From an uncultured Planctomycetota bacterium (GTDB lineage: Bacteria; Planctomycetota; Planctomycetia; Isosphaerales; Isosphaeraceae): DNA of 64,000 bases. Below the pieces are notes generated by a model. It did not search any database. It saw only the letters and a list, made by a program, of their open reading frames with translations, and was not told the DNA's origin. Every line of letters starts with the position of its first letter. Position 1 is the stretch's first letter. Positions 17,669-34,065 of the stretch are shown here, in pieces. Where the stretch lies: assembly GCA_963737655.1 (NCBI GenBank), contig CAVTTN010000002.1:1952001-2016000 (forward strand), in the 5' to 3' direction. The translations under genes were made by a program, and so were the position numbers.

Positions 17669-17992
17669 GGCTCAGGAGTCGAAGCCTTCGGTCGTGCTCG
17701 TCGTCGGCCTCGCCGGTCGCGCCTCGGCTCGACGACGCCATCGGTCGGGCCCCTGGAGTCGGCCTCGGCGGTGGTGCGCGTCGTCGCCCTCGCCGGCCGC
17801 GCCCCGAGGTCGGGCCCGTCGGCCGGCGCCCCCCTTGCCAACGCCGTCGGTCCGTGCCAGGATCGTCGGTGTCGGCGCGTGGGGCGTCGCCGGGGCGCCG
17901 CCTAACCCGGCGCTGCAGCGGACCCGGCCCGCGGTCGACGATCACTCTCCTCTCAATCTCGCCGGGCGCGGGCCGGTCCGCTGAGCTTTGTC
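17662..17992 (+). repeat. Apparently gene-less cassette, copy 1 of 3
   Basis: 331 bp, near-identical to 19536-19866 and 20325-20655. Confidence 0.85.
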
Positions 17993-17999
17993 GTTAGGC
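17900..17999 (+). repeat. attC site
   Basis: GCCTAAC...GTTAGGC with L boxes. Confidence 0.9.
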
Positions 18000-18147
18000 G
18001 TCGCGCCCTCGACACGGTTGGTTTGGCTCGTCGTCGAAGTCGCTGGGAGTGCCCCTGCTGTCAAAGTCTGTGGGTTGAGCTCCGGCTTCGCCGTCGCGAT
18101 GTTCGGTCATCGTCTCCAAAGGTCATCGTCGTCGCGGTCGGCCGCCT

Positions 18148-18527
18148 CTTCGTGAACTCTTTGGCTGGGAACGGCCATCGACGCGCGACACTACCCCAAC
18201 CCCAGGCTTTGTGGCCGGGCAGCGGCGAGGTCCGGGTAGCAAACCGACGGATTCAAGAGCGGCGGACGAGGCGCGGGCCGAGAGGGGAGTCGGTTACGCT
18301 TGCAGTCTCTTCGACGGGAACATCCCCGCGAGTCGGCTCGCGGGGCGTCGCCAATGACCGGATCACGACCTCTCGGGCCAGGCTAACCTACGGGCAGGGA
18401 GCACCAAGGTGGAGACGGCCGGGAGGCCCGCGCCACACTCAGGCTACGCCGCGCCGGGTCGGCGGGCAAGTCGTCCCCGACCCCCGTTCACGCCCCGTCG
18501 GGAGCGGACGAAGGCCGCAGGATGGTT
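18148..18527 (-). mobile_element. 380-bp non-autonomous IS110/IS1111-derived element, copy a (type 1)
   Basis: cttcgtgaactct...gcaggatggtt inserted in GCCT^AAC; homologous to the IS110 upstream non-coding region. Confidence 0.9.
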
Positions 18528-18623
18528 AACCTCGCGCTGCAGCGGACCCGTCCCGCGGTTGACGATTTTTCTGGTGTCCAGCCCGCTGGCCGCGGGTCGG
18601 TCCGCTGAGCTTGGTCGTTAGGC
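18528..18623 (+). repeat. attC site, R'' interrupted by element a
   Basis: gcct(18144-47)|aacctcgcgctgcagcggacc...gttaggc. Confidence 0.88.
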
Positions 18624-18648
18624 GTATTAGGTCGATCGGAGGCTCTGG

Positions 18649-19059
18649 ATGCGCAGTAGAGTCCGCTATGTCAGTGGTTTGCTATCGCTGTCCGTGCTGA
18701 TCTTTACCTCGTGCAGACCGGAGCGACCGGCGGGCAGCGAGGCGGACGCGTGGCCATCCGACCAAGAGATCCTCGCCTACCTCGATGGCAAGACGATTTT
18801 CGAGCCCACGCCTGCCTCATCGGAGAAGGGAGGTAGTGTACCCCCGAAATCCTTCTTGCTGAAGGCAGGCAACATTTCCTCCTTGGAAGTGAAGAAGTCG
18901 GGGGTTGCTGTCTCGGGCGAGCCTTGGACGACGCCGATCCATTTCATCCTCGACGAGGGGGGGCGTAAATATGCCGTTGATGCCAGCGTCGATCACCGGA
19001 AAGTCGATAATAAACGGGCCTTCTTCGGGCTCAAGGCCGAGCGCATCGCTGAGCAGTGA
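18649..19059 (+). CDS. Cassette ORF, predicted lipoprotein
   Basis: GGAGG RBS, lipobox LIFTSC, fills the cassette. Confidence 0.75.
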   Translation: MRSRVRYVSGLLSLSVLIFTSCRPERPAGSEADAWPSDQEILAYLDGKTIFEPTPASSEKGGSVPPKSFLLKAGNISSLEVKKSGVAVSGEPWTTPIHFILDEGGRKYAVDASVDHRKVDNKRAFFGLKAERIAEQ

Positions 19060-19064
19060 CGCCT

Positions 19065-19444
19065 CTTCGTGAACTCTTTGGCTGGGAACGGCCATCGACG
19101 CGCGACACTACCCCAACCCCAGGCTTTGTGGCCGGGCAGCGGCGAGGTCCGGGTAGCAAACCGACGGATTCAAGAGCGGCGGACGAGGCGCGGGCCGAGA
19201 GGGGAGTCGGTTACGCTTGCAGTCTCTTCGACGGGAACATCCCCGCGAGTCGGCTCGCGGGGCGTCGCCAATGACCGGATCACGACCTCTCGGGCCAGGC
19301 TAACCTACGGGCAGGGAGCACCAAGGTGGAGACGGCCGGGAGGCCCGCGCCACACTCAGGCTACGCCGCGCCGGGTCGGCGGGCAAGTCGTCCCCGACCC
19401 CCGTTCACGCCCCGTCGGGAGCGGACGAAGGCCGCAGGATGGTT
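19065..19444 (-). mobile_element. 380-bp element, copy b (type 1)
   Basis: Same sequence and insertion point as copy a. Confidence 0.9.
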
Positions 19445-19542
19445 AACCTCGCGCTGCAGCGGACCCCGGCCACGGGCCGCGCTCCCCTCTTCCCTCAAGC
19501 TCACTGGTCCGTGGCCGGGTCCGCTGAGCTTTGGCGTTAGGC
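19445..19542 (+). repeat. attC site, interrupted by element b
   Basis: aacctcgcgctgcagcgg...gttaggc. Confidence 0.88.
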
Positions 19543-19866
19543 GGCTCAGGAGTCGAAGCCTTCGGTCGTGCTCGTCGTCGGCCTCGCCGGTCGCGCCTCG
19601 GCTCGACGACGCCATCGGTCGGGCCCCTGGAGTCGGCCTCGGCGGTGGTGCGCGTCGTCGCCCTCGCCGGCCGCGCCCCCGAGGTCGGGCCCGTCGGCCG
19701 GCGCCCCCCTTGCCAACGCCGTCGGTCCGTGCCAGGATCGTCGGTGTCGGCGCGTGGGGCGTCGCCGGGCGCCGCCTAACCCGGCGCTGCAGCGGACCCG
19801 GCCCGCGGTCGACGATCACTCTCCTCTCAATCTCGCCGGGCGCGGGCCGGTCCGCTGAGCTTTGTC
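19536..19866 (+). repeat. Gene-less cassette, copy 2 (includes most of attC 19774-19873)
   Basis: Repeat of 17662-17992. Confidence 0.85.
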
Positions 19867-19873
19867 GTTAGGC
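19774..19873 (+). repeat. attC site
   Basis: Identical to attC 17900-17999. Confidence 0.9.
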
Positions 19874-19890
19874 GGCGGGAGACTCCCGCG

Positions 19891-20211
19891 ATGGATTGGC
19901 TCGAACCGTGGTGCGATGTCGCCGACCTCGGCCCCGACTTCGCGGCTACATTCGAGCGGGTTCTGGCACGCGAGGTCGCGCCGGGCCATCCCCTCCACAG
20001 CATCCCGGTCGCGGCAGTCGGCAAGCGCGACGGCACCGACGACGTGCTCTTTCGGCTGCTCGACGGCTCGGAGCGTGTCGCCGCCGTGCACCTGACCTGG
20101 ACTCGCTCCCCTCCCGAGCGGCCACCCTGGCCGGCAACCGAACTGTTCGCCGACTTCGAGGCGTTCGCCCGGCACCAGATGCGGCCCGACCATGAGGAAT
20201 TCGTGACGTAG
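19891..20211 (+). CDS. Cassette ORF, hypothetical protein
   Basis: RBS then ATG just after the attC; stop just before the next attC. Confidence 0.75.
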   Translation: MDWLEPWCDVADLGPDFAATFERVLAREVAPGHPLHSIPVAAVGKRDGTDDVLFRLLDGSERVAAVHLTWTRSPPERPPWPATELFADFEAFARHQMRPDHEEFVT

Positions 20212-20231
20212 CGGCGGGCACAAGAGACGCC

Positions 20232-20331
20232 GCCTAACCCGGCGCTGCAGCGGACCCGGCCGCCGCGGTCGGTTTCTGGTAACATCAAGGTCACTGGTCG
20301 GCGGCCGGTCCGCTGAGCTTGGTCGTTAGGC
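20232..20331 (+). repeat. attC site
   Basis: GCCTAAC...GTTAGGC; loop contains TGGTAACAT. Confidence 0.9.
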
Positions 20332-20655
20332 GGCTCAGGAGTCGAAGCCTTCGGTCGTGCTCGTCGTCGGCCTCGCCGGTCGCGCCTCGGCTCGACGACG
20401 CCATCGGTCGGGCCCCTGGAGTCGGCCTCGGCGGTGGTGCGCGTCGTCGCCCTCGCCGGCCGCGCCCCCGAGGTCGGGCCCGTCGGCCGGCGCCCCCTTG
20501 CCAACGCCGTCGGTCCGTGCCAGGATCGTCGGTGTCGGCGCGTGGGGCGTCGCCGGGGCGCCGCCTAACCCGGCGCTGCAGCGGACCCGGCCCGCGGTCG
20601 ACGATCACTCTCCTCTCAATCTCGCCGGGCGCGGGCCGGTCCGCTGAGCTTTGTC
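20325..20655 (+). repeat. Gene-less cassette, copy 3
   Basis: Repeat of 17662-17992. Confidence 0.85.
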
Positions 20656-20662
20656 GTTAGGC
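20563..20662 (+). repeat. attC site
   Basis: Identical to attC 17900-17999. Confidence 0.9.
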
Positions 20663-20680
20663 GGCTCGGAGGCAACCGCA

Positions 20681-21091
20681 ATGGCCGAGCCTTTCGACCG
20701 CATCGCCGCGCTGGGCGAGTTGCCCCCGACGCTCGCGGCACGCCTGCGGTTCCTCCCCGAGACCGATCGCTCCGTCATCGGCACCATCCGATGCGGCGTT
20801 CTGTTCGTCATGGCCTTCTGGAGCGGCCCCGCCCGGCTGGCCTTCGCCGAACTCAAGCGGGTGCTCGCGGCCGAGGACATCGCCGGCCGCTTAGAGTTGG
20901 TCGTCGTCGATACCGATGGCTGCCCCGACCTCCAGGATCAGCCCGAGTTCACCGGCAAGCTGCACGGCGCCGGCGAGGCCGCTTGGGTTAATCAGGGCGT
21001 CATTGTCTGCACGTCGGGCCTGGGCTATCATCCCGAGTGCTTCGGGCCGAATACGCGGCGCCTCCTGGGCGAATGCGCCGCCTCCCCGTGA
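20681..21091 (+). CDS. Cassette ORF, possible degenerate thioredoxin-like fold
   Basis: GGAGG RBS; AFWSGPA at a WCGPC-like position, later LVVVDTD; stop codon supplied by the IS end. Confidence 0.65.
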   Translation: MAEPFDRIAALGELPPTLAARLRFLPETDRSVIGTIRCGVLFVMAFWSGPARLAFAELKRVLAAEDIAGRLELVVVDTDGCPDLQDQPEFTGKLHGAGEAAWVNQGVIVCTSGLGYHPECFGPNTRRLLGECAASP

Positions 21092-21243
21092 ACTCTTCGC
21101 GCCGGCGGTTCGGCATCGGTTGATACTATGTGGGCATGATCATCGATCGGCCCGCATCCCCCCCGGCCCCCGCGACGACGGGGACGGCCCGATCCGGCTC
21201 GGCGGGGCTTGCGGTCGGGCGCCCCGCCTCCGACCCGTCGCCC

Positions 21244-22596
21244 TCACGACGGCGGCGACGGCGGCGACTTCGCCACCAGCTCGTAGCCCAGCGACCTCGC
21301 CTTGCGCCGCAGCGACCGCTCCTGCTTCGCGCGCACCTCGGCCTCGTACTCCGCCAGCGACCTCGACACGTACTCCTCGCCGTGCCTGAGCATCCGGTAC
21401 ACCAGCCGCGACAGCTTGTGCGCCGTCGCCGTGATCGCCCCCCGGCCGCCGATCCGGCCCTTGATCCGCCGGTAGAACTGGCCCGTCGCCGTCGCCGTCC
21501 GGCCCGCCGCCTGCGCCGCCATCCGCAGCGCCTGACCCACCCGGTTCTTGCCCTTGCGGGGCGTGCGACGCCGCTCGGTCTTGTTGCTCCGGTCGGTCCG
21601 CGGGCAGAGGCCCAGCCAGCTGGCGAAGTGCTTCTCGCTCGGGAACCGCCCCACGTCGCCGCCGAGCTCGGCCAGGATCACCGTCGCCGTCGTCGCGTCG
21701 ATCCCCTCGATGGCCGTCAGGTCCACGCCGATCGCCCGGGCCAGCTTGGCCGGGGCGTCGAACCGCACGTCGTTGGCCTTGCGGCCGCGCTTGCGGGGCC
21801 TCGCCGCGATCGGCCGGCCTTCGGAGCGGTCGGGCAGGCGGTCCAGCTCCTCGGCGATCCGGGCGTCGCACTCGTCGACCTGGCGGTGGAGGTAGTGGTA
21901 CAGGTCGGACGCCTGCCTCAGGGCGAACAGGTGCTCGGGCCGCCAGGTGCCCTCCAGGGCCCGGGCGATCTCCGCCTCGTCCCGGGCGCACCGCTCGTGC
22001 CGCAGCGCGGCCAGCTTCGTGGCGTCCCGCTCGCCGGCGAGGATCGCGGCGATGATCGCCGTGCCGGTGACGCCCGTGATGCTGCTGACGACCTCGGTCA
22101 GCTTCACATTCATCTGCTCCAAAGCCTTCTGCATGTGCTGGACGTGGTGCGAGGCGTACCGCACGAGCATCTGCCGCTGCCGCCAGTAGCCGCGCAGGGC
22201 CAGGACGGCCCCGGGCGGGCGGAAGGACGGGCGGAGCAGGCCGCACGAGTGGAGGCGCTGGAGCCACTGGCAGTCGAGCCGGTCGGTCTTGGGCCGGGCG
22301 CCGCAGTGGCTGGCCTGGCTCGGCTCGATGAGGAAGACCTCGAAGCCGCGCGATTCGAGCAGCTCGAACAGGGGGATCCAGTAGACGCCGGTGGACTCCA
22401 GGACCACCGAGGTGACGCCCTCGGCCCGGAACCAATCGGCCAGGGCGTGGAGGTCGGCCGAGCAGGCGCCGAAGGTGCGGACCCGTCCGGGCCCGACGCA
22501 GGCGACGTGGTTGTCGGAGTGGACGTCGACGGCGGCGGCGTGGGGGTGGACGACCGGCAGGGACGCGTCGGGATCGGGGGGCGTGCGGCGACTCAT
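21244..22596 (-). CDS. IS110 family transposase/recombinase
   Basis: RuvC-like DEDD residues AVDVH, LESTG, KTDRLD; C-terminal FASWLGLCP...S..RKG motif. Confidence 0.93.
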   Translation of the reverse strand: MSRRTPPDPDASLPVVHPHAAAVDVHSDNHVACVGPGRVRTFGACSADLHALADWFRAEGVTSVVLESTGVYWIPLFELLESRGFEVFLIEPSQASHCGARPKTDRLDCQWLQRLHSCGLLRPSFRPPGAVLALRGYWRQRQMLVRYASHHVQHMQKALEQMNVKLTEVVSSITGVTGTAIIAAILAGERDATKLAALRHERCARDEAEIARALEGTWRPEHLFALRQASDLYHYLHRQVDECDARIAEELDRLPDRSEGRPIAARPRKRGRKANDVRFDAPAKLARAIGVDLTAIEGIDATTATVILAELGGDVGRFPSEKHFASWLGLCPRTDRSNKTERRRTPRKGKNRVGQALRMAAQAAGRTATATGQFYRRIKGRIGGRGAITATAHKLSRLVYRMLRHGEEYVSRSLAEYEAEVRAKQERSLRRKARSLGYELVAKSPPSPPS

Positions 22597-22629
22597 GGCG
22601 AGGGCTCCGGCGGGTGGGGGGCCAAGCCG

Positions 22630-22850
22630 TCGCGGGCCGAGAGGGGGTCCGGGGACGAGGTAGTCTCCCCGACGGGAACGTCGCGGGGCCGTGTTGACAC
22701 GGCGCCGCGGGTCACCAATGATGGGGCCACGGCCTCTCGGGCCAAGCTAACCTGCGGGCGGCGAGCACCAGGGAGATGACGGCCGGGAGGCCCGCGGCGG
22801 CGACGCCGATCGTACCGCGCCCCGGTTCACGTCCGTCGGGGAGCGGTCGC
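22630..22850 (-). ncRNA. Putative bridge/seek RNA of the IS110 element
   Basis: Non-coding region 5' of the transposase with stems (ccgagagg/cctctcgg, gccgtgt/acacggc), a target match ctaacct (22747-53) and an own-end match ctccccg (22665-71). Boundaries approximate. Confidence 0.65.
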
Positions 22851-22867
22851 AGGCCGCGCGGAGAGTT

Positions 22868-22965
22868 AACCTCGCGCTGCAGCGGACCCCGGCCACGGGC
22901 CGCGCTTTCTCTTCTCTCGATGCTCGGTGGTCCGTGGCCGTGTCCGCTGAGCTTTGTCGTTAGGT
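22868..22965 (+). repeat. attC site, interrupted by the IS110 element
   Basis: aacctcgcgctgcagcgg...gttaggt. Confidence 0.88.
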
Positions 22966-22980
22966 GGCTCGGAGCTGTCA

Positions 22981-23367
22981 ATGCTCGTTGACTCATGCAT
23001 TCCGGTCATACCCAGCGCCGATCTGGAGAGGAGCCTGCGCTTCTGGGTGGATGGGCTTGGTCTGTCCATGGATCGTGCCATGCGGCACGACGGTCGCCTC
23101 GTCGGTTGTATGGTGCATAACGAGCGGCTGTATTTTTGGCTCAATCAACGAGCCGGTCCCCCGACCGCGTCGGAGAATTACGAGGGCATACGCCTCTACT
23201 GGACGCCAGGCAACATCAAGGCCATTAGGGAGCGTCTCCTGCGACTCGGTTACGCGGCTTCCGAGATTGAGGATCGTGAATATGGACAGGCCGAGTTCGT
23301 CGTCAAGGATGATGACGGGTACTCCCATTGCTTCGGAGTCGCTACAACAAGAGCGGCTAGCCTATGA
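22981..23367 (+). CDS. Cassette ORF, VOC/glyoxalase/bleomycin-resistance family
   Basis: IPVIPSADLERSLRFWVDGLGL...EDREYGQAEFVVKDDDG. Confidence 0.85.
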   Translation: MLVDSCIPVIPSADLERSLRFWVDGLGLSMDRAMRHDGRLVGCMVHNERLYFWLNQRAGPPTASENYEGIRLYWTPGNIKAIRERLLRLGYAASEIEDREYGQAEFVVKDDDGYSHCFGVATTRAASL

Positions 23368-23380
23368 CCGCAAGGGTGCC

Positions 23381-23480
23381 GCCTAACCCGGCGCTGCAGC
23401 GGACCCCGCACCGCCGCGGCGCCTGTTGTCTTATCATTGCTCGCTCGGCGGTGCGGGTCCGCTGAGCTTTTGCGTTAGGC
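23381..23480 (+). repeat. attC site
   Basis: GCCTAAC...GTTAGGC. Confidence 0.9.
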
Positions 23481-23497
23481 GGCGGAGAGATTCCCCG

Positions 23498-23845
23498 TTG
23501 GCGATCGACAACCCAAACGTCATCGACCTAATCGGCACCGACCGGACGACCGGCGAGGCCGTGCTCACCATCAGCGATCACCTCGAATGGGACGACCGCA
23601 ACGAGCATCTGCTGATCTTGCAAGAGAAAATCAACCGCTACATCGGTTTCATCGAGTCTGGCGAACTGCTGGAAAACTACGCGGGTGCGGCGGGCCGACT
23701 GATCCGCGTCGAGGTCGTTTGCAAGTATCCGCCGAGTGAAGTCGGCGAGCGATTCCTGAACCTCGCCAGCGAAACGTTCGAGAAGGCCGGTTGGTCCCTC
23801 ACTTGGCGTTGGTGGCCGAGCAAGCAGCTCGACGCCTCTTCGTGA
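23498..23845 (+). CDS. Cassette ORF, DUF6572-like protein
   Basis: TTG start after GGAGAG; VIDLIG...LTISDHLEW...HLLILQEKINRY..FIESGEL. Confidence 0.75.
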   Translation: MAIDNPNVIDLIGTDRTTGEAVLTISDHLEWDDRNEHLLILQEKINRYIGFIESGELLENYAGAAGRLIRVEVVCKYPPSEVGERFLNLASETFEKAGWSLTWRWWPSKQLDASS

Positions 23846-24217
23846 ACTCTTTGGCTGGGAACGGCCATCGACGCGCGACACTACCCCAACCCCAGGCTTT
23901 GTGGCCGGGCAGCGGCGAGGTCCGGGTAGCAAACCGACGGATTCAAGAGCGGCGGACGAGGCGCGGGCCGAGAGGGGAGTCGGTTACGCTTGCAGTCTCT
24001 TCGACGGGAACATCCCCGCGAGTCGGCTCGCGGGGCGTCGCCGATGACCGGATCACGACCTCTCGGGCCAGGCTAACCTACGGGCATGGAGCACCGAGGT
24101 GGATCCGGCCACCGACCCGCGCCACGAACCGGGCTACGCCGCGCCGGGTCGGTGGGCAAGTCGGCCCCGGCCCCCGTTCACGCCCCCTCGGGAGCGGACG
24201 AAGGCCGCAGGATGGTT
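23838..24217 (-). mobile_element. 380-bp element, copy c (type 1/type 2 chimera)
   Basis: Left part matches copy a, right part matches copy f. Confidence 0.9.
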
Positions 24218-24313
24218 AACCTCGCGCTGCGGCGGACCCGGCCCGCCGCGGTGCTTTCCTGTGCTATCATCATTTCCTCGGCGGTGCGGGTCCGCTGAGT
24301 TTTGTCGTCAGGG
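24218..24313 (+). repeat. attC site, interrupted; R' degenerate (GTCAGGG)
   Basis: aacctcgcgctgcggcggacc...ggtccgctgagt...gtcaggg. Confidence 0.8.
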
Positions 24314-24329
24314 GGATTGATCGTTTACC

Positions 24330-24601
24330 GTGACCAGCAGCCGTAAGATGTCTCAGCCCGAGTTCGATGAGTGGGCCCGCTCGCGCCGACTTGGCCCTTG
24401 GCGTCACGTCCTCGTTCGGGGCGTGCTCTCGAAGGGCCTACCAATCGGCGCCGGCTGGTTGCTCGGTCATTGGCTCGCGGGTACGCTGTCCTGGAGTTTT
24501 GCGATCTGCCTGCTCCTCATCATGATCGTTGCCGGTGCCGTCGATGGGGTTAGTCGATGGCGAGGAGGGCTCCCAATCGGCTCGGCGCGAGCACGCGGCC
24601 T
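24330..24601 (+). CDS. Cassette ORF, small two-helix membrane protein; the frame runs on into element d
   Basis: Two hydrophobic stretches; the true C-terminus is uncertain. Confidence 0.55.
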
Positions 24602-24981
24602 CTTCGTGAACTCTTTGGCTGGGAACGGCCATCGACGCGCGACACTACCCCAACCCCAGGCTTTGTGGCCGGGCAGCGGCGAGGTCCGGGTAGCAAACCG
24701 ACGGATTCAAGAGCGGCGGACGAGGCGCGGGCCGAGAGGGGAGTCGGTTACGCTTGCAGTCTCTTCGACGGGAACATCCCCGCGAGTCGGCTCGCGGGGC
24801 GTCGCCAATGACCGGATCACGACCTCTCGGGCCAGGCTAACCTACGGGCAGGGAGCACCAAGGTGGAGACGGCCGGGAGGCCCGCGCCACACTCAGGCTA
24901 CGCCGCGCCGGGTCGGCGGGCAAGTCGTCCCCGACCCCCGTTCACGCCCCGTCGGGAGCGGACGAAGGCCGCAGGATGGTT
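24602..24981 (-). mobile_element. 380-bp element, copy d (type 1)
   Basis: Same sequence and insertion point as copy a. Confidence 0.9.
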
Positions 24982-25077
24982 AACCTCGCGCTGCAGCGGA
25001 CCCCGCACCGCCGCGGCGATTCTTGTGTTATCATCGCGTTCTCGGCGGTGCGGGTCCGCTGAGCTTTGGCGTTAGGC
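24982..25077 (+). repeat. attC site, interrupted by element d
   Basis: aacctcgcgctgcagcgg...gttaggc. Confidence 0.88.
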
Positions 25078-25105
25078 GGCTCGGCGAAGATGCCTCGGGA
25101 CACCC

Positions 25106-25501
25106 GTGACGTTCGACCCCGACCGAATCATGACCCTCTCGACCATGCAGTTCCGACGTTTCGGAATCGCGTGCTGCTATCGGTTGGGGTGCGACCGCAA
25201 AGACAAGCGTCTCGCGAAGGCGCTCAAGAGACTGGAGCAATCGCTGGGGCCGCCGGCCGACGAGAGCATGCGTCGTGACGCGCTCAACGCCGCCAACTCC
25301 GCTTGCCGAGACCTCTCCGCAAGCAGCGGCGTGATACAGGTCGTTGCCCGCACCCTTGTTTGTGCCTGCTGGGACGGTCCCAATGAGAATCTGATTGGGA
25401 ATTTCGAAGCGGCGCTTGAACAAGGAGAGCACTTGAGCAGGTCCGAGATCAAGGACATTGAAAGCGAGATCTTTCGGGCTATCCTGGGCGCCTCTTCGTG
25501 A
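25106..25501 (+). CDS. Cassette ORF, hypothetical protein
   Basis: Fills the cassette; stop supplied by element e. Confidence 0.7.
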   Translation: MTFDPDRIMTLSTMQFRRFGIACCYRLGCDRKDKRLAKALKRLEQSLGPPADESMRRDALNAANSACRDLSASSGVIQVVARTLVCACWDGPNENLIGNFEAALEQGEHLSRSEIKDIESEIFRAILGASS

Positions 25502-25873
25502 ACTCTTTGGCTGGGAACGGCCATCGACGCGCGACACTACCCCAACCCCAGGCTTTGTGGCCGGGCAGCGACGAAGTCCGGGTAGCAAACCGACGGATTC
25601 AAGAGCGGCGGACGAGGCGCGGGCCGAGAGGGGAGTCGGTTACGCTTGCAGTCTCTTCGGCGGGAACATCCCCGCGAGTCGGCTCGCGGGGCGTCGCCAA
25701 TGACCGGATCACGACCTCTCGGGCCAGGCTAACCTACGGGCAGGGAGCACCAAGGTGGAGACGGCCGGGAGGCCCGCGCCACACTCAGGCTACGCCGCGC
25801 CGGGTCGGCGGGCAAGTCGTCCCCGACCCCCGTTCACGCCCCGTCGGGAGCGGACGAAGGCCGCAGGATGGTT
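25494..25873 (-). mobile_element. 380-bp element, copy e (type 1, a few SNPs), followed by a truncated attC
   Basis: Followed by aacctcgcgct and then unrelated sequence. Confidence 0.9.
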
Positions 25874-25909
25874 AACCTCGCGCTCGACACCCAAGCCGGA
25901 GCATGTTGC

Positions 25910-26701
25910 ATGCGCTCATTAAGATTTGTCGTTATTACACTGTCGTTGACGGTTCGGTTCGCACCGCTCTATGCCCAGACGCCTGGAAAAAAACCGCCGA
26001 GCCGGGTTGTTGGCAGCGTGTATGGGAAGGCCGTCACCGCGGACCAGGTTGGCCTGACCTTGCCGATCGACAACACCAAGAAATTCGATGCACGAGATAC
26101 ACCCGCGTGGGAACAGATGGAGCGGGTCGCGGTGGCGTTCGGTAGCCCGGTCATGGAGCGGTTGGTCGCGCAGCGGAAGCTCGACGCCACGGCCGACGAG
26201 ATGGCCGCGTACAGGAGGGTCAACCTGATATTGAAAGGGCAGATGCTACGCGAGACGGAAGCTCGTTTGACGAAGGTCAAGGAGGAACTCGCGTCGCCCC
26301 ACCTGTCGGATGGAAGGAAAGCGGAACTGGAGAAAGAACGAGAGACGTTCGAACAGAGCCTCCCGGCGCAGCGCGAATCCGCCAGGCGTAATGACGACGA
26401 TGATGATGCTTTCGGTCGCGGGCTCATCCTCTCCTGGAAGGTCGAGCGGGAGCTGTACCGGACCTACGGCGGTCGCTTGATCTGGCAGCAATTCGGTATC
26501 GAGGCGCTCGACGCCCGCCGCCTGCTGTTCGAGGAAGCGGAGAAGAAGGGTGACCTGAAGTTCGACGATCCGGGGGTGCGGCGTCTATTTTATTACTACT
26601 CCAACATGCCTCACACTTTCGTCGGTGAGAAGGAACCAAGATTGCTGGAAGAGAAGCCTTGGTTCCTGAAGGATGGGGACGAACCGCTCCCCGAGAAGTG
26701 A
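25910..26701 (+). CDS. Cassette ORF, secreted helical protein
   Basis: GGAG RBS; signal-peptide-like MRSLRFVVITLSLTVRFAPLYA; coiled coil. Confidence 0.75.
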   Translation: MRSLRFVVITLSLTVRFAPLYAQTPGKKPPSRVVGSVYGKAVTADQVGLTLPIDNTKKFDARDTPAWEQMERVAVAFGSPVMERLVAQRKLDATADEMAAYRRVNLILKGQMLRETEARLTKVKEELASPHLSDGRKAELEKERETFEQSLPAQRESARRNDDDDDAFGRGLILSWKVERELYRTYGGRLIWQQFGIEALDARRLLFEEAEKKGDLKFDDPGVRRLFYYYSNMPHTFVGEKEPRLLEEKPWFLKDGDEPLPEK

Positions 26702-26764
26702 GTGATGGGGCCGCGGCCGGAATCGAGGACATGGCGGATTTTGGCCCTAACCCGCTATGTCATG

Positions 26765-26865
26765 GCCTGACCTCGCGCTGCAGCGGACCCCGCACCGCCG
26801 CGGCGCCTTCTGGTAGAATCAACGCTGCTCGGGCGGTGCGGGTCCGCTGAGCTTCGGCGTGAGGC
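26765..26865 (+). repeat. attC site (GCCTGAC...GTGAGGC variant)
   Basis: Conserved L boxes and stem. Confidence 0.8.
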
Positions 26866-26885
26866 GGCGGAGGGAGGCCGATCCC

Positions 26886-27332
26886 ATGGAAGTCGTGAAA
26901 TCCAACCGCTACGGGCCGCTGGAGCCTGCTCGACTCGAAGCGTTCGAATCCCTGATCGGGTCGCGTTTCCCGGGAGACTTCCGTCAGTTCCTCCTCGACC
27001 ATAATGGCGGTCGACCCGCCTTCGATCACCTCCTCGATGCCGAGCGGGACGACTCGTTGGCGTGCCTGAACAGCACTTACGGGCTGCACGACGGACCGGA
27101 GTATTGCCGCATGGACTCGACCTTCGACACGCTCCGTGATGTGCTGCCGGCCGGCCTCATCTCCTTCGGCGACGATCCGGGAGGGAACCTCTTCTGCATC
27201 GGGGTCGCCGGGGAGTATCGAGGCCGGGTTTATTTGTGGGACCACGAGACGGCGGAACCCAAGCTGCTGGGAGAATCGTTCGAGGAGTTCCTGTCGCGTT
27301 TGGGCCCCGATCCCTGGGACGCCTCTTCGTGA
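26886..27332 (+). CDS. Cassette ORF, SMI1/KNR4 (SUKH) family immunity-type protein
   Basis: LEAFESLIGSRFPGDFRQFLLDHNGG, ISFGDDPGGNLFC, GRVYLWDHE. Confidence 0.88.
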   Translation: MEVVKSNRYGPLEPARLEAFESLIGSRFPGDFRQFLLDHNGGRPAFDHLLDAERDDSLACLNSTYGLHDGPEYCRMDSTFDTLRDVLPAGLISFGDDPGGNLFCIGVAGEYRGRVYLWDHETAEPKLLGESFEEFLSRLGPDPWDASS

Positions 27333-27704
27333 ACTCTTCTCCATCGAACGGCCGTCGATGCGCGACATTCCCCCGACCCCTGGCCGTGTGGCCGGGCAGC
27401 GACGAGGTCCGGGTGGCAATCCGACGGATTCGGGATCGGCGATCGAGGCGCGGGCCGAGAGGGGAATCGGTTACGTTCGGAGTCTCTTCGACGGGGACAT
27501 CCCCGCGAGTCGCCGCGCGGGGCGTCGCCGATGACCGGATCACGACCTCTCGGGCCAGGCTAACCTACGGGCATGGAGCACCGAGGTGGATCCGGCCACC
27601 GACCCGCGCCACGAACCGGGCTACGCCGCGCCGAGTCGGTGGGCAAGTCGGCCCCGGCCCCCGTTCACGCCCCCTCGGGAGCGGACGAAGGCCGCAGGAT
27701 GGTT
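27325..27704 (-). mobile_element. 380-bp element, copy f (diverged type 2)
   Basis: Same length, ends and guide-like segments; many internal substitutions. Confidence 0.9.
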
Positions 27705-27801
27705 AACCTCGCGCTGCGGCGGACCCCGCACTGCCGCTACACTTTCTGCTACGATCAACGTCGCTCGGGCGGTGCGAGGCCGCTGAGCTTGGGCGTTAGG
27801 C
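27705..27801 (+). repeat. attC site, interrupted by element f
   Basis: aacctcgcgctgcggcgg...gttaggc. Confidence 0.85.
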
Positions 27802-27883
27802 GGCGTCGCGGTCGGCCAGAATGTGACGAACTCGCGGAGCGTGGAACGCAGGCCGCGCGGAAACCGATCGTGAGGTTAGCGAC

Positions 27884-28399
27884 ATGAAGCTGAATGTTTC
27901 CAGCCTCGCCTTCGCCCGACACCGAGACGAAGTGCCCGCGCGGTGGCTCCTCGATATCCTCTGGCTCGTCCTCGCCTCCGGCGAGGACACGAATGGCGAG
28001 TATTCCGTCATCGAGCAGTTCATGCCCGTCGGGTCCGGCCCGCCGCCGCACGGGCATCCGTTCGAGGACGAGATGTTCTACGTCCTGGCCGGGGAGATGA
28101 CCGTCATCGTCGGCGGGCAGGAGATCGTCTTGAAGCCCGGCAGCCTGGGCCACGTCCCGCGCAACGTCGTCCACGAATTCAAGGTGACCGGCACCGACGT
28201 GTGCCATTGCCTGAACTACTACACCCCCGCCGGGTTCGAGCAGTCGGTCCTCGGGTGTTCGCGGCCCGCGGAACGGCGCGAGTTGCCCCCGCCCGGGCTG
28301 GACCCGCTTGACTCTCCGCAGGTGATGCAATTCTTCAACAACTACTGGGTCGCCGGGGCAACGCTCCCCTGGGCCCAGCAGAAGTGGTCGCCCGGTTGA
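27884..28399 (+). CDS. Cassette ORF, cupin domain protein
   Basis: GPPPHGHPFEDEMFYVLAGE...VPRNVVHEF. Confidence 0.88.
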   Translation: MKLNVSSLAFARHRDEVPARWLLDILWLVLASGEDTNGEYSVIEQFMPVGSGPPPHGHPFEDEMFYVLAGEMTVIVGGQEIVLKPGSLGHVPRNVVHEFKVTGTDVCHCLNYYTPAGFEQSVLGCSRPAERRELPPPGLDPLDSPQVMQFFNNYWVAGATLPWAQQKWSPG

Positions 28400-28491
28400 G
28401 CGCCAAGCGGCACGCGCCCATGCCGGTTGGGCCGGAAAACCGCATCCCGGAGTGCCGGGGCCTCGACGCCTTCCCGCTGGCGGAGGGCGGC

Positions 28492-28592
28492 GCCGAAACT
28501 GGCGCGGGAGCGGACCCGGCCGCCGCGATTGGTTTCTGGTAATATTCTAAGTCGCAGGCCGGCGGCCGGTCCGCGGAGCTTCGGCGTTAGGC
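28492..28592 (+). repeat. attC site (R'' degenerate, GCCGAAA)
   Basis: gcggacccggcc...ggccggtccgcggagc...gttaggc. Confidence 0.78.
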
Positions 28593-28607
28593 GGCGAGGC
28601 GCGACCG

Positions 28608-29057
28608 ATGGCGAAGGGACTGCCGGGGACGGTCGCCGTCAACCACGACGATTACCACGCCGAATACGTCGGGCGAACCAAGGACGGCGCGCAATTCTTC
28701 CTCACGACGCCCTTCGTGCCGGGGGTCGGAGACCAGCCGGGCCGGGAGTTCATCGCGCTCTACCTGTTCGACAAGGCTGGCCAACTCCAGGCGGCCACGA
28801 TCGACGACCTGGGGCCTCGCGAGACGATGGATCTGGGGGCGAGGATGGCCCGCCGAGACGAGTTGCTCGCCTCGCTGGGTGAGGTCAGCTATCAGCGAAT
28901 CAAAGTCGCCCCGTTTCGGATCGAGAGGTTCGGGGTTGAGTTCGGGTTCATCCCGCAGCCGCCCGAGGAGCCGGGCGAGGACTGGAGCGTCATCGTGATG
29001 CCGGGAGACGTCATGTGCTTCTGGCCGCCTTGGTCCAGCGGCGACTACGATACGTAA
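28608..29057 (+). CDS. Cassette ORF, hypothetical protein
   Basis: RBS GAGG; fills the cassette. Confidence 0.75.
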   Translation: MAKGLPGTVAVNHDDYHAEYVGRTKDGAQFFLTTPFVPGVGDQPGREFIALYLFDKAGQLQAATIDDLGPRETMDLGARMARRDELLASLGEVSYQRIKVAPFRIERFGVEFGFIPQPPEEPGEDWSVIVMPGDVMCFWPPWSSGDYDT

Positions 29058-29066
29058 TGCCGCGAC

Positions 29067-29167
29067 GCCTAACCTGGCGCGGCGTCGGACCCCGCACCGC
29101 CGCGGCGCGTTCTGCTACGATCGAAGGCCGCTCGGGCGGGTGGGTCTGCTGAGCTTTGGCGTTTGGC
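29067..29167 (+). repeat. attC site
   Basis: GCCTAAC...GTTTGGC. Confidence 0.82.
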
Positions 29168-29185
29168 GGCTCGGAGGGTCAGGCG

Positions 29186-29521
29186 TTGGAGGAGGCGTGT
29201 CCCCTCGAAGAAAAGCTGTCCAATGTCGCAGCCGACCTGCTGTCCGAGCGGCGGTTCGAGGCATTCGTCCGCCGCCTGTTCGCGGCCCCTCCCGGCGTGT
29301 GGCAGGGCGTGGCGGCCTGCTGCTCAAGCATGCCGGTGCTGCCGGGCCTCGCCGCCGAGGTCTTCGCCGGCCACGCCGAGTGCTTCGTGGTCACGCATCT
29401 GCCATGGCCCGGCCTTCCCTCCCGCGATCCCTACGCTCTGGTGCTGTTCCTGCACGCCGATATCATGTGGTCCACCACCGCGTTGTACAATCGCGCCGTG
29501 TTCGGGGCCGACTCTTCGTGA
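29186..29521 (+). CDS. Cassette ORF, hypothetical protein
   Basis: TTG start after GGAGG; stop supplied by element g. Confidence 0.6.
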   Translation: MEEACPLEEKLSNVAADLLSERRFEAFVRRLFAAPPGVWQGVAACCSSMPVLPGLAAEVFAGHAECFVVTHLPWPGLPSRDPYALVLFLHADIMWSTTALYNRAVFGADSS

Positions 29522-29893
29522 ACTCTTTGGCTGGGAACGGCCATCGACGCGCGACACTACCCCAACCCCAGGCTTTGTGGCCGGGCAGCGGCGAGGTCCG
29601 GGTAGCAAACCGACGGATTCAAGAGCGGCGGACGAGGCGCGGGCCGAGAGGGGAGTCGGTTACGCTTGCAGTCTCTTCGACGGGAACATCCCCGCGAGTC
29701 GGCTCGCGGGGCGTCGCCAATGACCGGATCACGACCTCTCGGGCCAGGCTAACCTACGGGCAGGGAGCACCAAGGTGGAGACGGCCGGGAGGCCCGCGCC
29801 ACACTCAGGCTACGCCGCGCCGGGTCGGCGGGCAAGTCGTCCCCGACCCCCGTTCACGCCCCGTCGGGAGCGGACGAAGGCCGCAGGATGGTT
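29514..29893 (-). mobile_element. 380-bp element, copy g (type 1)
   Basis: Inserted in GACT^AAC. Confidence 0.9.
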
Positions 29894-29988
29894 AACCTCG
29901 CGCTGCAGCCGACCCCACCCGCCGCGGCGGTTTTCGGTATAGTCGATGTCGCTCGGGCGGGTGGGTCTGCTGAGCTTTGGCGTTAGGC
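29894..29988 (+). repeat. attC site, interrupted by element g
   Basis: aacctcgcgctgcagccgacc...gttaggc. Confidence 0.85.
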
Positions 29989-30004
29989 CCAAGGAGGGCG
30001 GGTC

Positions 30005-30775
30005 GTGGCTCGGAAGCGGAAGAGCACCCCCGGTCCGTACTTGTTGTACCTTGAGGTCCTCCGCGGTCGCATCCCGGACGTCAGCCGCTTCCCGTACAAC
30101 CTGCCCGCCTTCCGCGCCCTGACGACGCTGCCGTTCCATCCCAAGGTGACGTTCCTCGTCGGGGAGAACGGGTCCGGCAAATCGACACTCCTGGAGGCCG
30201 TCGCCGTCGAGTGCGGGTTGAATCCCGAAGGCGGCAGCCGGAACTTCCACTTCGCCACGCGGGCCTCGCACTCGTCGCTCGACGAATGCGTTCGGCTCGC
30301 GAAGGCCCCGGCTTCGCCCGGCGACTGGTACTTCTTGCGGGCCGAGAGCTTTTACAACGTGGCTTCGGAGATCGAACGTCTCGACGAGGGACCGGGAGGC
30401 GGGCCGATCATCGGTGCCTACGGCGGCAAGTCGCTCCACGAGCAGTCGCACGGGGAGTCTTTTTTCGCCCTGTTCCAGAACCGGTTCCGGGACCATGGGC
30501 TGTACCTGATGGATGAGCCGGAGGCCGCGTTGTCGCCGAAGCGGCAACTCCAATTCCTCGCATTGCTCCACGACTACGTGTGCCGGGGCGGGCAGTTCGT
30601 CATCGCCACGCACTCACCGATCATCATGGCGTACCCCGAATCGCGCATCTATTTGCTGGACGGCGAGGGTATCCGGGAGATTGCTTACACGGACACCGAG
30701 CACTACCAGATCACTCGGGGATTCCTGAGCAACCCGCAGCGGTCGCTGTCGGTGCTGCTCGGTGAGGAGCGATAA
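30005..30775 (+). CDS. Cassette ORF, stand-alone ABC/AAA-type ATPase
   Basis: Walker A GENGSGKS, signature QSHGE, Walker B LMDEPE, H-loop ATHSP. Confidence 0.9.
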   Translation: MARKRKSTPGPYLLYLEVLRGRIPDVSRFPYNLPAFRALTTLPFHPKVTFLVGENGSGKSTLLEAVAVECGLNPEGGSRNFHFATRASHSSLDECVRLAKAPASPGDWYFLRAESFYNVASEIERLDEGPGGGPIIGAYGGKSLHEQSHGESFFALFQNRFRDHGLYLMDEPEAALSPKRQLQFLALLHDYVCRGGQFVIATHSPIIMAYPESRIYLLDGEGIREIAYTDTEHYQITRGFLSNPQRSLSVLLGEER

Positions 30776-30779
30776 ATAG

Positions 30780-30883
30780 GCCCAGCCTCGCGCCGCTGCA
30801 GCGGACCCGGCCCACCTCCTCGCTTTCTGGTAACATGAAGGTCACTCTCGGCGGCGCGGGTCCGCTGAGCTTGGGCGTTAGGC
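30780..30883 (+). repeat. attC site (R'' degenerate)
   Basis: gctgcagcggacc...ggtccgctgagc...gttaggc. Confidence 0.8.
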
Positions 30884-30899
30884 GTGTCGCGAAAGCACA

Positions 30900-31469
30900 A
30901 TGAGCGAACCGAGACTTACATTCGCAACGCAATCCGAGTGGGAAGACTGGCTTGAAGCCAATGGCAGCACTTCGCCCGGCGTGTGGCTTCGCTTGGCGAA
31001 GAAGTCTGCCGAGCAACCAACGGTCACTTATGCACAAGCGCGAGAAAGCGCTCTTTGCCACGGGTGGATCGATGGCCAAAAGCAATCGGAAAACCAGCAC
31101 TATTGGCTTCAGCGCTTTACACCGAGAACTGCCAAGAGCATCTGGTCGAAGATCAACAAGGAAAAGGCGGAGGCACTCATCACATCGCAACGGATGCGGG
31201 CAGCAGGTCTGGTCGCGATAGAACGGGCAAAATCGGACGGAAGATGGGATGCGGCATACTCATCGGCGAGCACTTCGACCGTCCCTGACGACCTGCAAGA
31301 AGCCCTTGATGCAAACCCAAGAGCCAAAACGTTTTTTGCGACGCTCAATAGCCAAAATAGGTATGCCATCTTGTTTCGAATTCAAAAAGTCAAGAAGGCC
31401 GAGACACGGGCGAAGAAGATCGCTCAATTCATTGAAATGCTCAATGATGGCGAAAAGCTCTATCCATAA
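30900..31469 (+). CDS. Cassette ORF, YdeI/OmpD-associated (bacteriocin-protection) family
   Basis: WEDWL, ALCHGWIDG, RFTPR..KSIWSKINK, PDDLQEAL, KKAETRAKKI; visibly lower GC than the host. Confidence 0.85.
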   Translation: MSEPRLTFATQSEWEDWLEANGSTSPGVWLRLAKKSAEQPTVTYAQARESALCHGWIDGQKQSENQHYWLQRFTPRTAKSIWSKINKEKAEALITSQRMRAAGLVAIERAKSDGRWDAAYSSASTSTVPDDLQEALDANPRAKTFFATLNSQNRYAILFRIQKVKKAETRAKKIAQFIEMLNDGEKLYP

Positions 31470-31553
31470 CGAAGCCTGTCTAGTTGATGCAGAAAAGTTT
31501 ATCAAAATGATACATGTTAAATATTGATACTTGTCATAGACTGCGAGCGTCCC

Positions 31554-31658
31554 GCCTGACCTCGCGCCGCAGCGGACCCGGCCCGCCGCGGCGCCCGCTG
31601 GGGATGCGTAGGACAGACTCGGCGGGCCGGTCAGGTCCTCTGAGCTTGATCGTTAGGC
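31554..31658 (+). repeat. attC site (GCCTGAC variant)
   Basis: gcctgacctcgcgccgcagcggacc...gttaggc. Confidence 0.8.
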
Positions 31659-31674
31659 GGCAGGAGACCCCACG

Positions 31675-32180
31675 GTGGACGAGCCTGGGTTTTGGAAGAT
31701 CATCGATGCGGCCGGGCGAGCAGCCCACAGTGACCCCGAGCGGCAACTCTCCGCCGTCCGCAAGCGGTTGAGCGATCTCGCGCCGAGGAACTGGTCGAGT
31801 TCCACGCGATCTTCAACCGCAAATTGGCCGAAGCCTATACCTGGGACCTCTGGGGCGCCGCCTATCTCATCAACGGTGGGTGTTCTGATGATGGCTTCGC
31901 CTACTTCCGGGCCTGGCTTATCTCATGTGGTCAATCCGTCTACTCTTCAGCCCTCCGCAAACCCGACTCACTGTCGAGCATCGTCGATCCCGATCGCGAC
32001 GATTACGAGTTCGAGGATCTGTGGGGGATCGCCCAAGTCATCTACGAAGAGACGACGGGTAGCGAGATGCCAACGGTCGATTTTGCTTGGCCTGCCGAGC
32101 CGAAGGGGGATCGCTGGGATTTCGACGACGACGAACAAGTCACACGCAAGCTCCCCAAACTGGCCGAGCTTTACGCCTGA
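31675..32180 (+). CDS. Cassette ORF, DUF4240 family, 1-bp frameshift near 31785
   Basis: MDEPGFWKII in one frame; LWGAAYLINGGCSDDGFAYFRAWLI...LPKL in another. Confidence 0.8.
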
Positions 32181-32274
32181 CCTCGCGCTGCAGCGGACCC
32201 CGCACCGCCTCGGTGCTCCCCGTGCTATCATGGATTCCTGGGCGGTGCAGGTCCGCTGAGCTCTATCGTTAGGC
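32175..32274 (+). repeat. attC site (GCCTGAC variant; TGA is the gene's stop)
   Basis: gcctgacctcgcgctgcagcgg...gttaggc. Confidence 0.85.
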
Positions 32275-32289
32275 GGCTTGGAGACACCG

Positions 32290-32853: not shown

Positions 32854-32857
32854 CGCC

Positions 32858-32915
32858 GCCTAACCGGGCGCTGCAGCGGACCCCGCACCGCCGCATCTGA
32901 TCTTTGGCGTTAGGC
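32858..32915 (+). repeat. Short 58-bp attC with internal deletion
   Basis: GCCTAAC...GTTAGGC but the right arm of the stem is missing. Confidence 0.75.
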
Positions 32916-32929
32916 GGCTTGGAGGCGAC

Positions 32930-33286: not shown

Positions 33287-33380
33287 CCTCGTGCTGCAGA
33301 GGACCCCGCACCGCCGCGGCGGTTTACGCGTTATCCTCGTACTCTCGGCGGTGTGGGTCCGCTGAGCTTTGGCGTTCGGC
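33281..33380 (+). repeat. attC site
   Basis: GTCTAAC...GTTCGGC. Confidence 0.85.
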
Positions 33381-33395
33381 GGCGGAGAATCAACC

Positions 33396-34024: not shown

Positions 34025-34065
34025 GGCGGAGATCCGACCGGGCTTTACAGGAAGGAGTTCCAGGT

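Follow-up and report, generated by a model that had tools for sequence, protein, structure and literature searches.

The 64,000-nt stretch of DNA analyzed here (the window; positions 1,952,001 to 2,016,000 of the forward strand of contig CAVTTN010000002.1, assembly GCA_963737655.1) comes from an uncultured Planctomycetota bacterium of the Isosphaeraceae and contains an attC-like array occupied by an IS110-family insertion sequence (IS) and by small elements lacking a recombinase gene, referred to below as mini-elements or minis. Both kinds of element carry a bridge RNA, and two 7-base segments on the minus strand of the window are almost certainly the guides of this IS110-family RNA, one reading the attC target and the other the right end of the element itself. 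The minis share the target guide of the IS and possess a donor guide of their own, which matches an end that is likewise their own; judged from homologous sequences, this contrast exemplifies a rule that holds generally. The array has probably been colonized by the IS together with the RNA-carrying minis, the latter being moved in trans by the IS recombinase with their own RNA.

Guides, Ends and Fold of the Bridge RNA

The full IS measures 1784 bp (21084..22867, minus strand), with its left end (LE) at 22867 and its right end (RE) at 21084 in the sense of the transposase, and lies within an attC site at gcCT|...|AACCT. Upstream of its recombinase gene, and in the same sense, is a bridge RNA region of about 180 nt (22619..22802, minus strand). 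The target guide of this RNA, AGGUU-AG (CTAACCT on the plus strand), occupies 22747..22753 on the 3′ strand of the target loop, and the donor guide, CGGGG-AG (CTCCCCG on the plus strand), occupies 22665..22671 on the 3′ strand of the donor loop. In the mini at 18148..18527 (minus strand), the same target guide is found at 18383..18389, and the donor guide at 18307..18313 reads CGAAG-AG (CTCTTCG on the plus strand), two of its five variable bases being different from those of the IS. The ends of the elements differ in the same manner. At the right-end junction of the IS (21082..21088, minus strand), the terminal CGGGG (CCCCG on the plus strand, 21084-21088) is followed by the target core AG (CT on the plus strand, 21082-21083), and at that of the mini (18146..18152, minus strand), the terminal CGAAG (CTTCG on the plus strand) is followed by the core AG (CT on the plus strand). 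On the plus strand, these junctions read gcct|CCCCGTGAACTC from 21084 and gcct|CTTCGTGAACTC from 18148, respectively. A first-pass annotation, made from the letters of the window, had pointed to these segments at the same positions, reading CTAACCT as the target across the insertion point, the second segment as a mirror of each element's own end, and their order as target first and donor second, with both ending in AG. This description holds throughout the genome (7.6 Mb in 3 contigs): the end CTTCG occurs with an internal CTTCG in 28/28 minis and CCCCG with CCCCG in 6/6 full IS copies, while CTAACCT is present in 34/34 complete elements, all of which are flanked by CT| and |AACCT.

Within this genome, the difference in end and guide amounts to a single contrast between IS and minis, so its significance rests on homologues and not on the number of copies. 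Homologues of the recombinase, with 41-84% identity, came from genomes of the same family as well as from contigs of public genomes; many of these records are labelled Planctomycetota, and others are labelled with several other phyla. The upstream regions of the homologues, the IS and the minis were aligned with MAFFT (alignment A1, 23 sequences, in which the guide blocks are columns 50-56 and 133-139), and a covariance model, R1, was built from A1. R1 gave 98 matches in 99 sources, representing 68 distinct RNAs. For the target guide, the left flank was examined, over the 55-125 nt upstream of the RNA, for the five guide bases followed by A; for the donor guide, GTTnn followed by the five guide bases and A was sought at the right end. 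As a control, each locus was given the guide of another locus in 1000 trials. The target guide matches its own left flank, just ahead of the point where the conserved part of the element starts, in 43 of the 58 distinct RNAs with enough upstream sequence (swapped mean 0.59, maximum 4), and 22 different target words match their own flanks in this way. The donor guide matches its own right end in 55/64 distinct RNAs (swapped mean 0.34, maximum 2). The right end follows a common pattern, consisting of a subterminal GTT, two bases, five bases equal to the guide and then the flanking AG, and a matching end exists for all 13 donor words: TGGGG, CGGGG, CGAAG, TTGGG, TGGGA, TTGGA, TCAGG, TTAGG, TTGAG, TTGAA, TTGTA, TTAGA and TTGCA. 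Thus, as in the bridge RNAs of the IS110 family, one loop covaries with the genomic target and the other with the element's own ends, and the covariation that the first-pass annotation had staked on further homologues is upheld by them.

The consensus fold consists of an outer stem around two modules, each built from a stem at the base, an internal loop and a hairpin at the far end, and the 3′ strand of the internal loop in each module carries five variable bases plus a constant AG. Both guides therefore lie in unpaired strands, not in the paired stems whose possibility had been raised earlier. In A1, 95.8% of cells pair, vs 91.0% in shuffles (0/500), and sliding the partners reduces this value to 41-46%. 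In the alignment of the 68 distinct RNAs to R1 (A2), which is fitted to the model and favors structure, 96.1% of cells pair, vs 75.7% in shuffles (0/500), and double-sided changes occur at 32/39 pairs. G-U pairs are frequent in A1 (for example, 22/23 and 21/23 at two pairs), so the fold exists only on the recombinase-sense strand; likewise, 74/74 R1 matches in recombinase-oriented loci are on the strand of the gene. The stem ccgagagg/cctctcgg, which had been predicted to enclose the donor segment, is the basal stem of the donor loop (18278..18285 with 18369-18376, minus strand; A1 helix columns 65-70/161-166), and 6/6 of its pairs change on both sides in A2. The IS RNA scores 148.4 bits against R1. 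A structured noncoding RNA (ncRNA) beside the recombinase gene, in the same sense and with two internal loops, is the arrangement of an IS110 bridge RNA. Rfam gave no matches in the window at gathering scores, and a permissive Rfam search of 22550-22900 gave only a chance-level match to sX15 (19 bits vs a cut-off of 55). Single-sequence folding z-scores of -0.9 and -0.4 were not informative.

Both guides contain the top-strand sequence, in the recombinase sense, of the left half-site and the core; they would therefore pair with the bottom strand, like IS621's guides for the left target and the left donor. The core dinucleotide is AG: both guides end in it, and it follows the RE in 34/34 copies in this genome. 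The LE begins with AG in more distant homologues and with AA in the present clade, and in all 34 copies the left junction has the AA of the donor and the right junction the AG of the target (e.g., 18146-18148 and 18527-18529). The second base of the core thus differs between donor (A) and target (G) and always segregates in one direction; this one-sided outcome could mean that only the exchange products of one strand are inherited.

For the opposite strand, a candidate top-strand (right-target) guide lies on the 5′ strand of the target loop of the IS (22770..22779, minus strand), where it weakly matches the right flank of the element. Among 37 RNA types, which are related and not independent, 149 positions match, vs a permutation mean of 109 (0/2000), and column-by-position covariation is consistent with the register of this candidate. 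With a shift of one base, CCU stands opposite AGG, and in the minis CCACCU stands opposite AGGYGG. No top-strand donor guide was established; the column-by-position scan gave a weak and non-contiguous signal (best at RNA position 73/RE -6, 0.70 vs 0.37 expected). Two further segments were considered. CCGUGG in the IS and UCGUGA in the mini, at the start of the 5′ strand of the donor loop, are by eye complementary to RE -3 to -8, and this complementarity fails in locus L140 (a genome of the same genus), in locus L061 (a public contig) and in a larger group of homologues. The segment after the donor guide (GUCCCCG in the IS, GUAACCG in the minis) had the look of another guide, but in homologues it shows no covariation with either target or donor words.

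The recombinase gene itself (21244..22596, minus strand) encodes 450 amino acids (aa) with a DEDD/RuvC-like N-terminal domain and a C-terminal Tnp domain with a conserved Ser (Pfam PF01548 and PF02371, named DEDD_Tnp_IS110 and Transposase_20), and it scores 253 bits against NCBIfam NF033542, "IS110 family RNA-guided transposase" (cut-off 140). Its sole PDB match is distant (E 1.5e-10), namely chain 8wt6_A of the IS621 transposase, in an alignment spanning the recombinase stretches LESTG, KTDxxD and GLxPRxxxS. The motif G--P----S(G) is present as described (Siddiquee 2024, PMC11187229), but the Ser is followed by Asn here. The six full IS copies in the genome comprise three that are identical and three at 96.5% identity, and there are two partial copies. 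One of these, outside the window at C2:1680927-1681647, has 90% identity, ends inside the recombinase gene and adjoins a short tandem repeat with units of GTCCCCTTTTCGGCCCC. This recombinase is the only one in the genome linked to an R1-type RNA; one further IS110-family gene belongs to a different subfamily and lacks such an RNA. By eye, a short inverted repeat, AACTCTyCGCGC, is visible, with one arm at the tip of the LE and the other lying 7 bases inward at the RE.

Several observations concern the loops and their targets. A promoter-like site on the plus strand (22694-22722; TTGACA, 17 nt, AATGAT; 10/12, with none in 50 shuffles) runs antisense across the donor loop of the IS bridge RNA and is absent from the minis; in ISPpu9, an antisense RNA lies over the 5′ untranslated region (UTR) (PMC12288879). 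Natural retargeting is seen within one genome, where loci L033, L066, L069 and L121 have the guide CAUUC and loci L060, L067, L068 and L073 have CAUUU; the left flanks, where readable, differ likewise (CATTC vs CATTT). Both flanks of L033/L066 contain GTTCCATTC, so the target itself is a tandem repeat. At locus L071, two full IS copies stand 9 bases apart (RNAs 687-870 and 2637-2820), the second within a repeat of the target word GGCACAT. A relative of the minis on a single soil-metagenome contig (depth 2, about 92% alike) has CTGACCG for CTAACCT (window 18385 and 18389) and has possibly been retargeted.

Mini-Elements in the attC Array

The mini at 18148..18527 represents type 1: its 380 bp (minus strand) contain no recombinase gene and consist of 89 nt at the LE, an entire bridge RNA and 112 nt at the RE. 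The RNA core (18260..18438, minus strand) covers the full length of R1 (model positions 1-184), retains every conserved scaffold position and, at 157.1 bits, outscores the RNA of the IS (148.4). As they would join in an RE-LE circle, the ends read ...GTTCACGAAG on the RE side and A(A/G)CCATCC... on the LE side. Compared with the IS, the terminal five RE bases differ at two positions and the first 16 LE bases differ as well, and 14 subterminal RE bases (GTGAACTCTT...) are common to both. The minis resemble MITEs (miniature inverted-repeat transposable elements) in that they have no transposase gene, keep both ends and occur in many copies at cognate sites, but their ends are not identical to those of the resident autonomous element. 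It is the RNA of the mini itself that would have to recognize these ends.

The window contains 8 occurrences of the end motif CGTGAACTCTT, vs 0.63 expected (0/100 shuffles reach 8), and these correspond to one IS and seven minis of 380 bp. Besides the copy described above, type 1 minis lie, all on the minus strand, at 19065..19444 (RNA 19177-19355), 24602..24981 (RNA 24714-24892), 25494..25873 (RNA 25606-25784) and 29514..29893 (RNA 29626-29804; left flank gaCT, not gcCT). Type 2, which is 87% identical to type 1, is found at 27325..27704 (RNA 27437-27614, minus strand), and the mini at 23838..24217 (RNA 23950-24127, minus strand) is a mosaic, its RE half resembling type 1 and the part toward its LE resembling the type 2 copy. 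Such a mosaic suggests, from its sequence, recombination between mini types. The attC to the right of the mini at 25494..25873 is cut off 11 bases past the junction, ending after AACCTCGCGCT, beyond which unrelated sequence follows (window 25874-25900); the same flank recurs in the genome with an intact attC (C2:1679758), and the attC beside this mini has been truncated after the insertion. The genome holds 28 minis in total, of which 15 are identical to the query copy and 6 more differ from it by about one base. Their left flanks are of 26 different kinds, two pairs of minis sharing flanks, and the elements are spread over at least 7 separate chromosome regions.

The array that receives these elements (17900..34626, plus strand) comprises at least 22 attC-like sites (GCCTAAC...GTTAGGC), with as many attC 3′ cores, in one orientation (22 matches vs 0.01 expected). 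Each of the 34 complete elements in the genome occupies an attC-like site, all in one orientation, with gcCT on one side and AACCT(c/t/g)gcgctgcag on the other; the base after AACCT varies and thus belongs to the flank and not to the element. The insertion point CT|AACCT lies inside the 5′ core of attC. Occupancy follows the target word: in this genome, 31 attC sites with AACCT are occupied and 9 are free, vs 0 occupied and 18 free for AACCC, GACCT and AACCG (Fisher p = 1e-8). This saturation of the cognate sites probably freezes the cassettes concerned, an effect inferred from occupancy. An integron integrase was not found among the six reading frames neighboring the array, which resembles an attC cluster with no integrase beside it; its neighbors include a gene for an AcrB-family pump (13105-16425) and one for a beta-propeller protein (35499-36527).

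In a tree of the RNAs, the minis and one relative form the sister group of the RNAs of attC-targeting ISs. Together with an RNA identity of 70% to the resident IS, this position implies that the minis are not recent deletions of that IS, and on these sequence grounds they are an older sister lineage and not its derivatives. The first-pass annotation had regarded the mini RNA as reprogrammed for its own donor; the donor guide of its own stands, and the derivation from the resident IS does not. Relatives of the minis also occur elsewhere. L140 contains a diverged mini copy in an attC site with the same CGAAG end/guide pair, and in L061 a GAAG-type mini abuts the right end of an 84%-identical IS in a tandem arrangement (1780-2273). 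The L061 mini has the end CATGAAG with the guide UGAAG, where the present minis and L140 have CACGAAG with CGAAG. Its target-guide block is two bases longer (CGGTTGG-AG) and, without TT, resembles the IS right end CGGGG.

GAAG-type guides account for 9/108 R1 matches examined, and a recombinase gene follows in 0/9. Ten R1 matches were fetched because no recombinase match was listed beside them (two of them for a second or nearby hit), and six proved to be complete small elements with the RNA (L140, L141, L142, L143, L146 and L148). In five of the six the left flank equals the element's own target guide, and L143 has one mismatch. Among the other four (L144, L145, L147 and L149), L144 and L145 run into a recombinase-like frame, and in L149 the gene is broken. 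Small elements that carry an entire RNA and lack a transposase are common in this IS clade. The mini DNA itself had no match outside its own genome among 400 genomes across the phylum, with 2 candidates scored per genome. A metagenome scan with a 17-letter donor-guide pattern returned at least 119 stretches, and all those examined were chance matches, the pattern being too short; the 80 loci fetched from it contained no R1 RNA and no recombinase homologue. Among indexed sequencing runs, none came from this organism and no RNA data set carried its words; in five soil-metagenome runs, a share of 0.05-0.06 of the sampled words was present in contig form.

Proposed Mobilization in Trans and Competing Explanations

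In the mechanism considered here, the resident IS recombinase would serve two RNAs, that of the IS and that of the mini. Both would direct insertion into CT|AACCT, while recognition of ends would be exclusive, the IS RNA accepting CGGGG alone and the mini RNA CGAAG alone. In that case the IS recombinase, loaded with the mini RNA, would excise and insert the minis in trans. We infer three of the steps involved: that the mini RNA is transcribed, that the IS recombinase binds it and that the minis are still mobile today. There are good grounds in the sequences for supposing that a mini moves under the direction of the RNA it carries, and mobilization in trans with this RNA is somewhat favored on the same basis. 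The donor codes of IS and mini mismatch at 2/5 bases, and in IS621 mismatches between left donor and guide are poorly tolerated (Durrant 2024, PMC11208160). The minis accordingly resemble parasites that supply a guide of their own and take from the IS just its enzyme, and their shared target code sets IS and minis in competition for the same subset of attC sites. A bolder form of this view, about which we are evenly divided, is that the minis may be a long-lived guide-RNA-only lineage that keeps both recognitions in its own RNA, can do without any likeness to the ends of an autonomous element, needs only a compatible recombinase and lets donor word and end co-evolve privately. GAAG is seen in none of the recombinase-linked RNAs examined. 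If this form is true, the minis would constitute a natural orthogonal bridge-RNA/donor pair for one recombinase, as well as a hyperparasite vying for target sites with a helper that it outnumbers (28 vs 6 copies).

Several points weigh against the mobilization of the minis by means of their own RNA, or against the guides on which it depends. The sequences compared are related, and the permutation figures therefore overstate their independence. The guide match fails in 15/58 RNAs for the target and 9/64 for the donor, some of these failures being cut contigs or alignment slips, and the candidate top-strand guide matches the right flank of the window's own IS and minis at 1-2/10 positions. The mini RNA is just 70% identical to the RNA of the IS, its binding by the recombinase being assumed from the conserved scaffold positions. 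No sigma-70-like promoter was found on the RNA strand of IS or mini, and across the joined RE-LE ends the best promoter match is 7/12 for the mini and 5/12 for the IS, with a consensus that may not be that of this host. Contigs from four soil-metagenome runs are relatives about 90% alike and contain no circle junction and no empty site. Finally, an autonomous GAAG-ended IS may exist unsampled, and the donor code would then be a legacy of such an ancestor and no peculiarity of the minis.

Four other explanations were weighed. It is exceedingly improbable that the segments match by chance or through captured attC sequence. The words are only 7 bases long and the genome offers one contrast, but swapped guides yield means of 0.59 and 0.34 against the 43 and 55 matches observed, which we count as refuting this idea; moreover, own-flank matches extend to 22 target and 13 donor words, and the covariation of the structure places them in loops. 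A second possibility accepts the guides and makes the mini RNA a passenger, the minis being moved by the IS ribonucleoprotein with the IS RNA and the guide/end match being inherited history. The 14 subterminal RE bases shared by IS and minis (GTGAACTCTT...) would suit such a scheme, as would the tolerance of IS621 for some mismatches (Durrant 2024, PMC11208160). Nevertheless, two of the five donor-guide positions would mismatch, and these five bases track the end exactly in 55/64 homologues. Within the mini lineage, C/U in the guide follows C/T at position -5 of the end, which shows selection on the mini's own guide, and the mini RNA keeps every conserved scaffold position. The diversity of the left flanks of the minis also speaks against this scheme, which we regard as very unlikely.

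The same continued tracking of end by guide within the mini lineage bears on the idea that the minis are inert relics, formed by internal deletion in an extinct GAAG-ended IS and spread by cassette duplication or integron recombination. This history would agree with the lack of an autonomous GAAG-type partner in the genome, with the two mini pairs that share flanks, and hence include some copies made by duplication, and with the soil contigs, which yielded no circle junction. It is quite unlikely in view of the 26 different left flanks among 28 copies, the recent burst implied by 15 identical copies and 6 that are about one base off, the exact same insertion position of every copy, solely in AACCT attC sites, and the dispersal over at least 7 chromosome regions. 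A further possibility is that the mini RNA mainly affects the IS, either as a decoy, titrating its recombinase or blocking the shared sites, or as a regulator, with the spread of the mini itself being secondary. Its target guide is the same as that of the IS, 31/40 cognate sites are filled, mostly by minis, and a regulatory role has been proposed for the MITE-borne Ssr9 of MITEPpu9 (PMC12288879). A principal role of this kind is unlikely, since it leaves unexplained a donor guide that tracks the mini's own end; as a supplementary role, it is compatible with mobilization in trans and does not exclude it.

Mobilization in trans by the mini's own RNA would also set the minis apart from other nonautonomous elements. 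In classical MITEs, the ends must mimic those of the helper, whereas the ends of a mini can drift because the mini carries the RNA that reads them. If confirmed, CGGGG and CGAAG would represent natural orthogonal donor codes for one recombinase with one shared target code. The system would likewise provide an IS110-type element that targets attC, has no relation to the IS1111-attC group and saturates the cognate sites of a large cassette array.

Comparison With Known RNA-Guided Elements

Recombination guided by a bridge RNA has been described for IS621 and the IS110 family (Durrant 2024, PMC11208160; Hiraizumi 2024, PMC11208158), and the published systems are compared here as they appear in excerpts of the respective reports. 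Like IS621, the present IS encodes a recombinase with the same two domains, has its ncRNA upstream in the same sense with the target loop first and the donor loop second, and uses a donor guide that reads the element's own RE. However, the guides that pair with the bottom strand lie on the 5′ strand of the loops in IS621 and on the 3′ strand here. The first-pass annotation was therefore right to invoke IS621 as regards the order of the loops and the guides ending at the core, and not as regards the side of the loop; the layout is not of the IS621 type. In addition, the guides have 7+2 bases in IS621 and 5+2 here, an outer stem encloses both modules here, the core is CT there and AG here in the recombinase sense, and the recombinase, to which only a distant match exists, has 328 aa (chain) there and 450 aa here. 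If confirmed, a bridge RNA family whose guide order is inverted relative to IS621 would be useful for the question of how the loops dock on the tetramer.

With respect to guide order, the seekRNAs of IS1111 elements offer a closer parallel: the top-strand match comes first and the bottom-strand match second, which is reversed in the IS110-type ISEc21 (Siddiquee 2024, PMC11187229). The top-strand match is likewise 5′ of the bottom-strand match in the present RNA. By other measures, the element is not an IS1111. IS1111 elements have a noncoding region (NCR) downstream of tnp, a transposase of 330-350 aa and subterminal inverted repeats, and the IS110 group has 395-455 aa and an upstream NCR (PMC11187229); with its upstream NCR and its 450-aa recombinase, the present IS departs from IS1111 in both size and NCR position. 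It therefore combines IS110-type organization with IS1111-type guide order. Like the IS1111-attC group (ISKpn4, ISPst6, ISPa25), it inserts at one end of attC and in one orientation (34/34 here), and its targeting of attC looks convergent with that of this group. The group is said to have been treated by Tetu and Holmes in 2008 and by Post and Hall in 2009.

The nearest counterpart of the minis is MITEPpu9/ssr9 of ISPpu9, a transposase-less IS110-family companion with a small-RNA gene (Pares-Guillen 2025, PMC12288879). Both systems have the crossover dinucleotide AG and a tandem arrangement of IS and companion, as in L061, and MITEPpu9, too, has been proposed to hitch-hike on the IS transposase (PMC12288879). 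They differ in that the ends of MITEPpu9 are near-copies of the IS ends (1-3 mismatches), while the minis have a donor word of their own. In the portions of that report on which this comparison draws, the RNA is discussed as a regulator complementary to the antisense RNA, and not as a guide, and no donor guide for its own end is described. Copy numbers are 8 for MITEPpu9 and 28 minis vs 6 ISs here.

Transposase-only IS110 elements of about 800 bp, without the 5′ UTR, were recently reported (bioRxiv 10.64898/2026.08.14.744561). Those elements show that a recombinase and its bridge RNA can reside on separate elements and act in trans; relative to the minis, they represent the reciprocal case of a protein without RNA. 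Since the excerpted survey in this preprint (10.64898/2026.08.14.744561) required a transposase, RNA-only elements fell outside its scope, and another 2026 preprint, as excerpted, surveyed the diversity of bridge RNAs solely beside recombinase genes. A full-text search of the literature, covering articles without their supplements, found no recombinase-less element with its own donor guide matching its own distinct end. RNA-guided recombination by IS110 and IS1111 elements, attC targeting by the IS1111-attC group and the MITE-like RNA companion of ISPpu9 are established. To these, the minis would add a natural case of the RNA half freed from the protein half.

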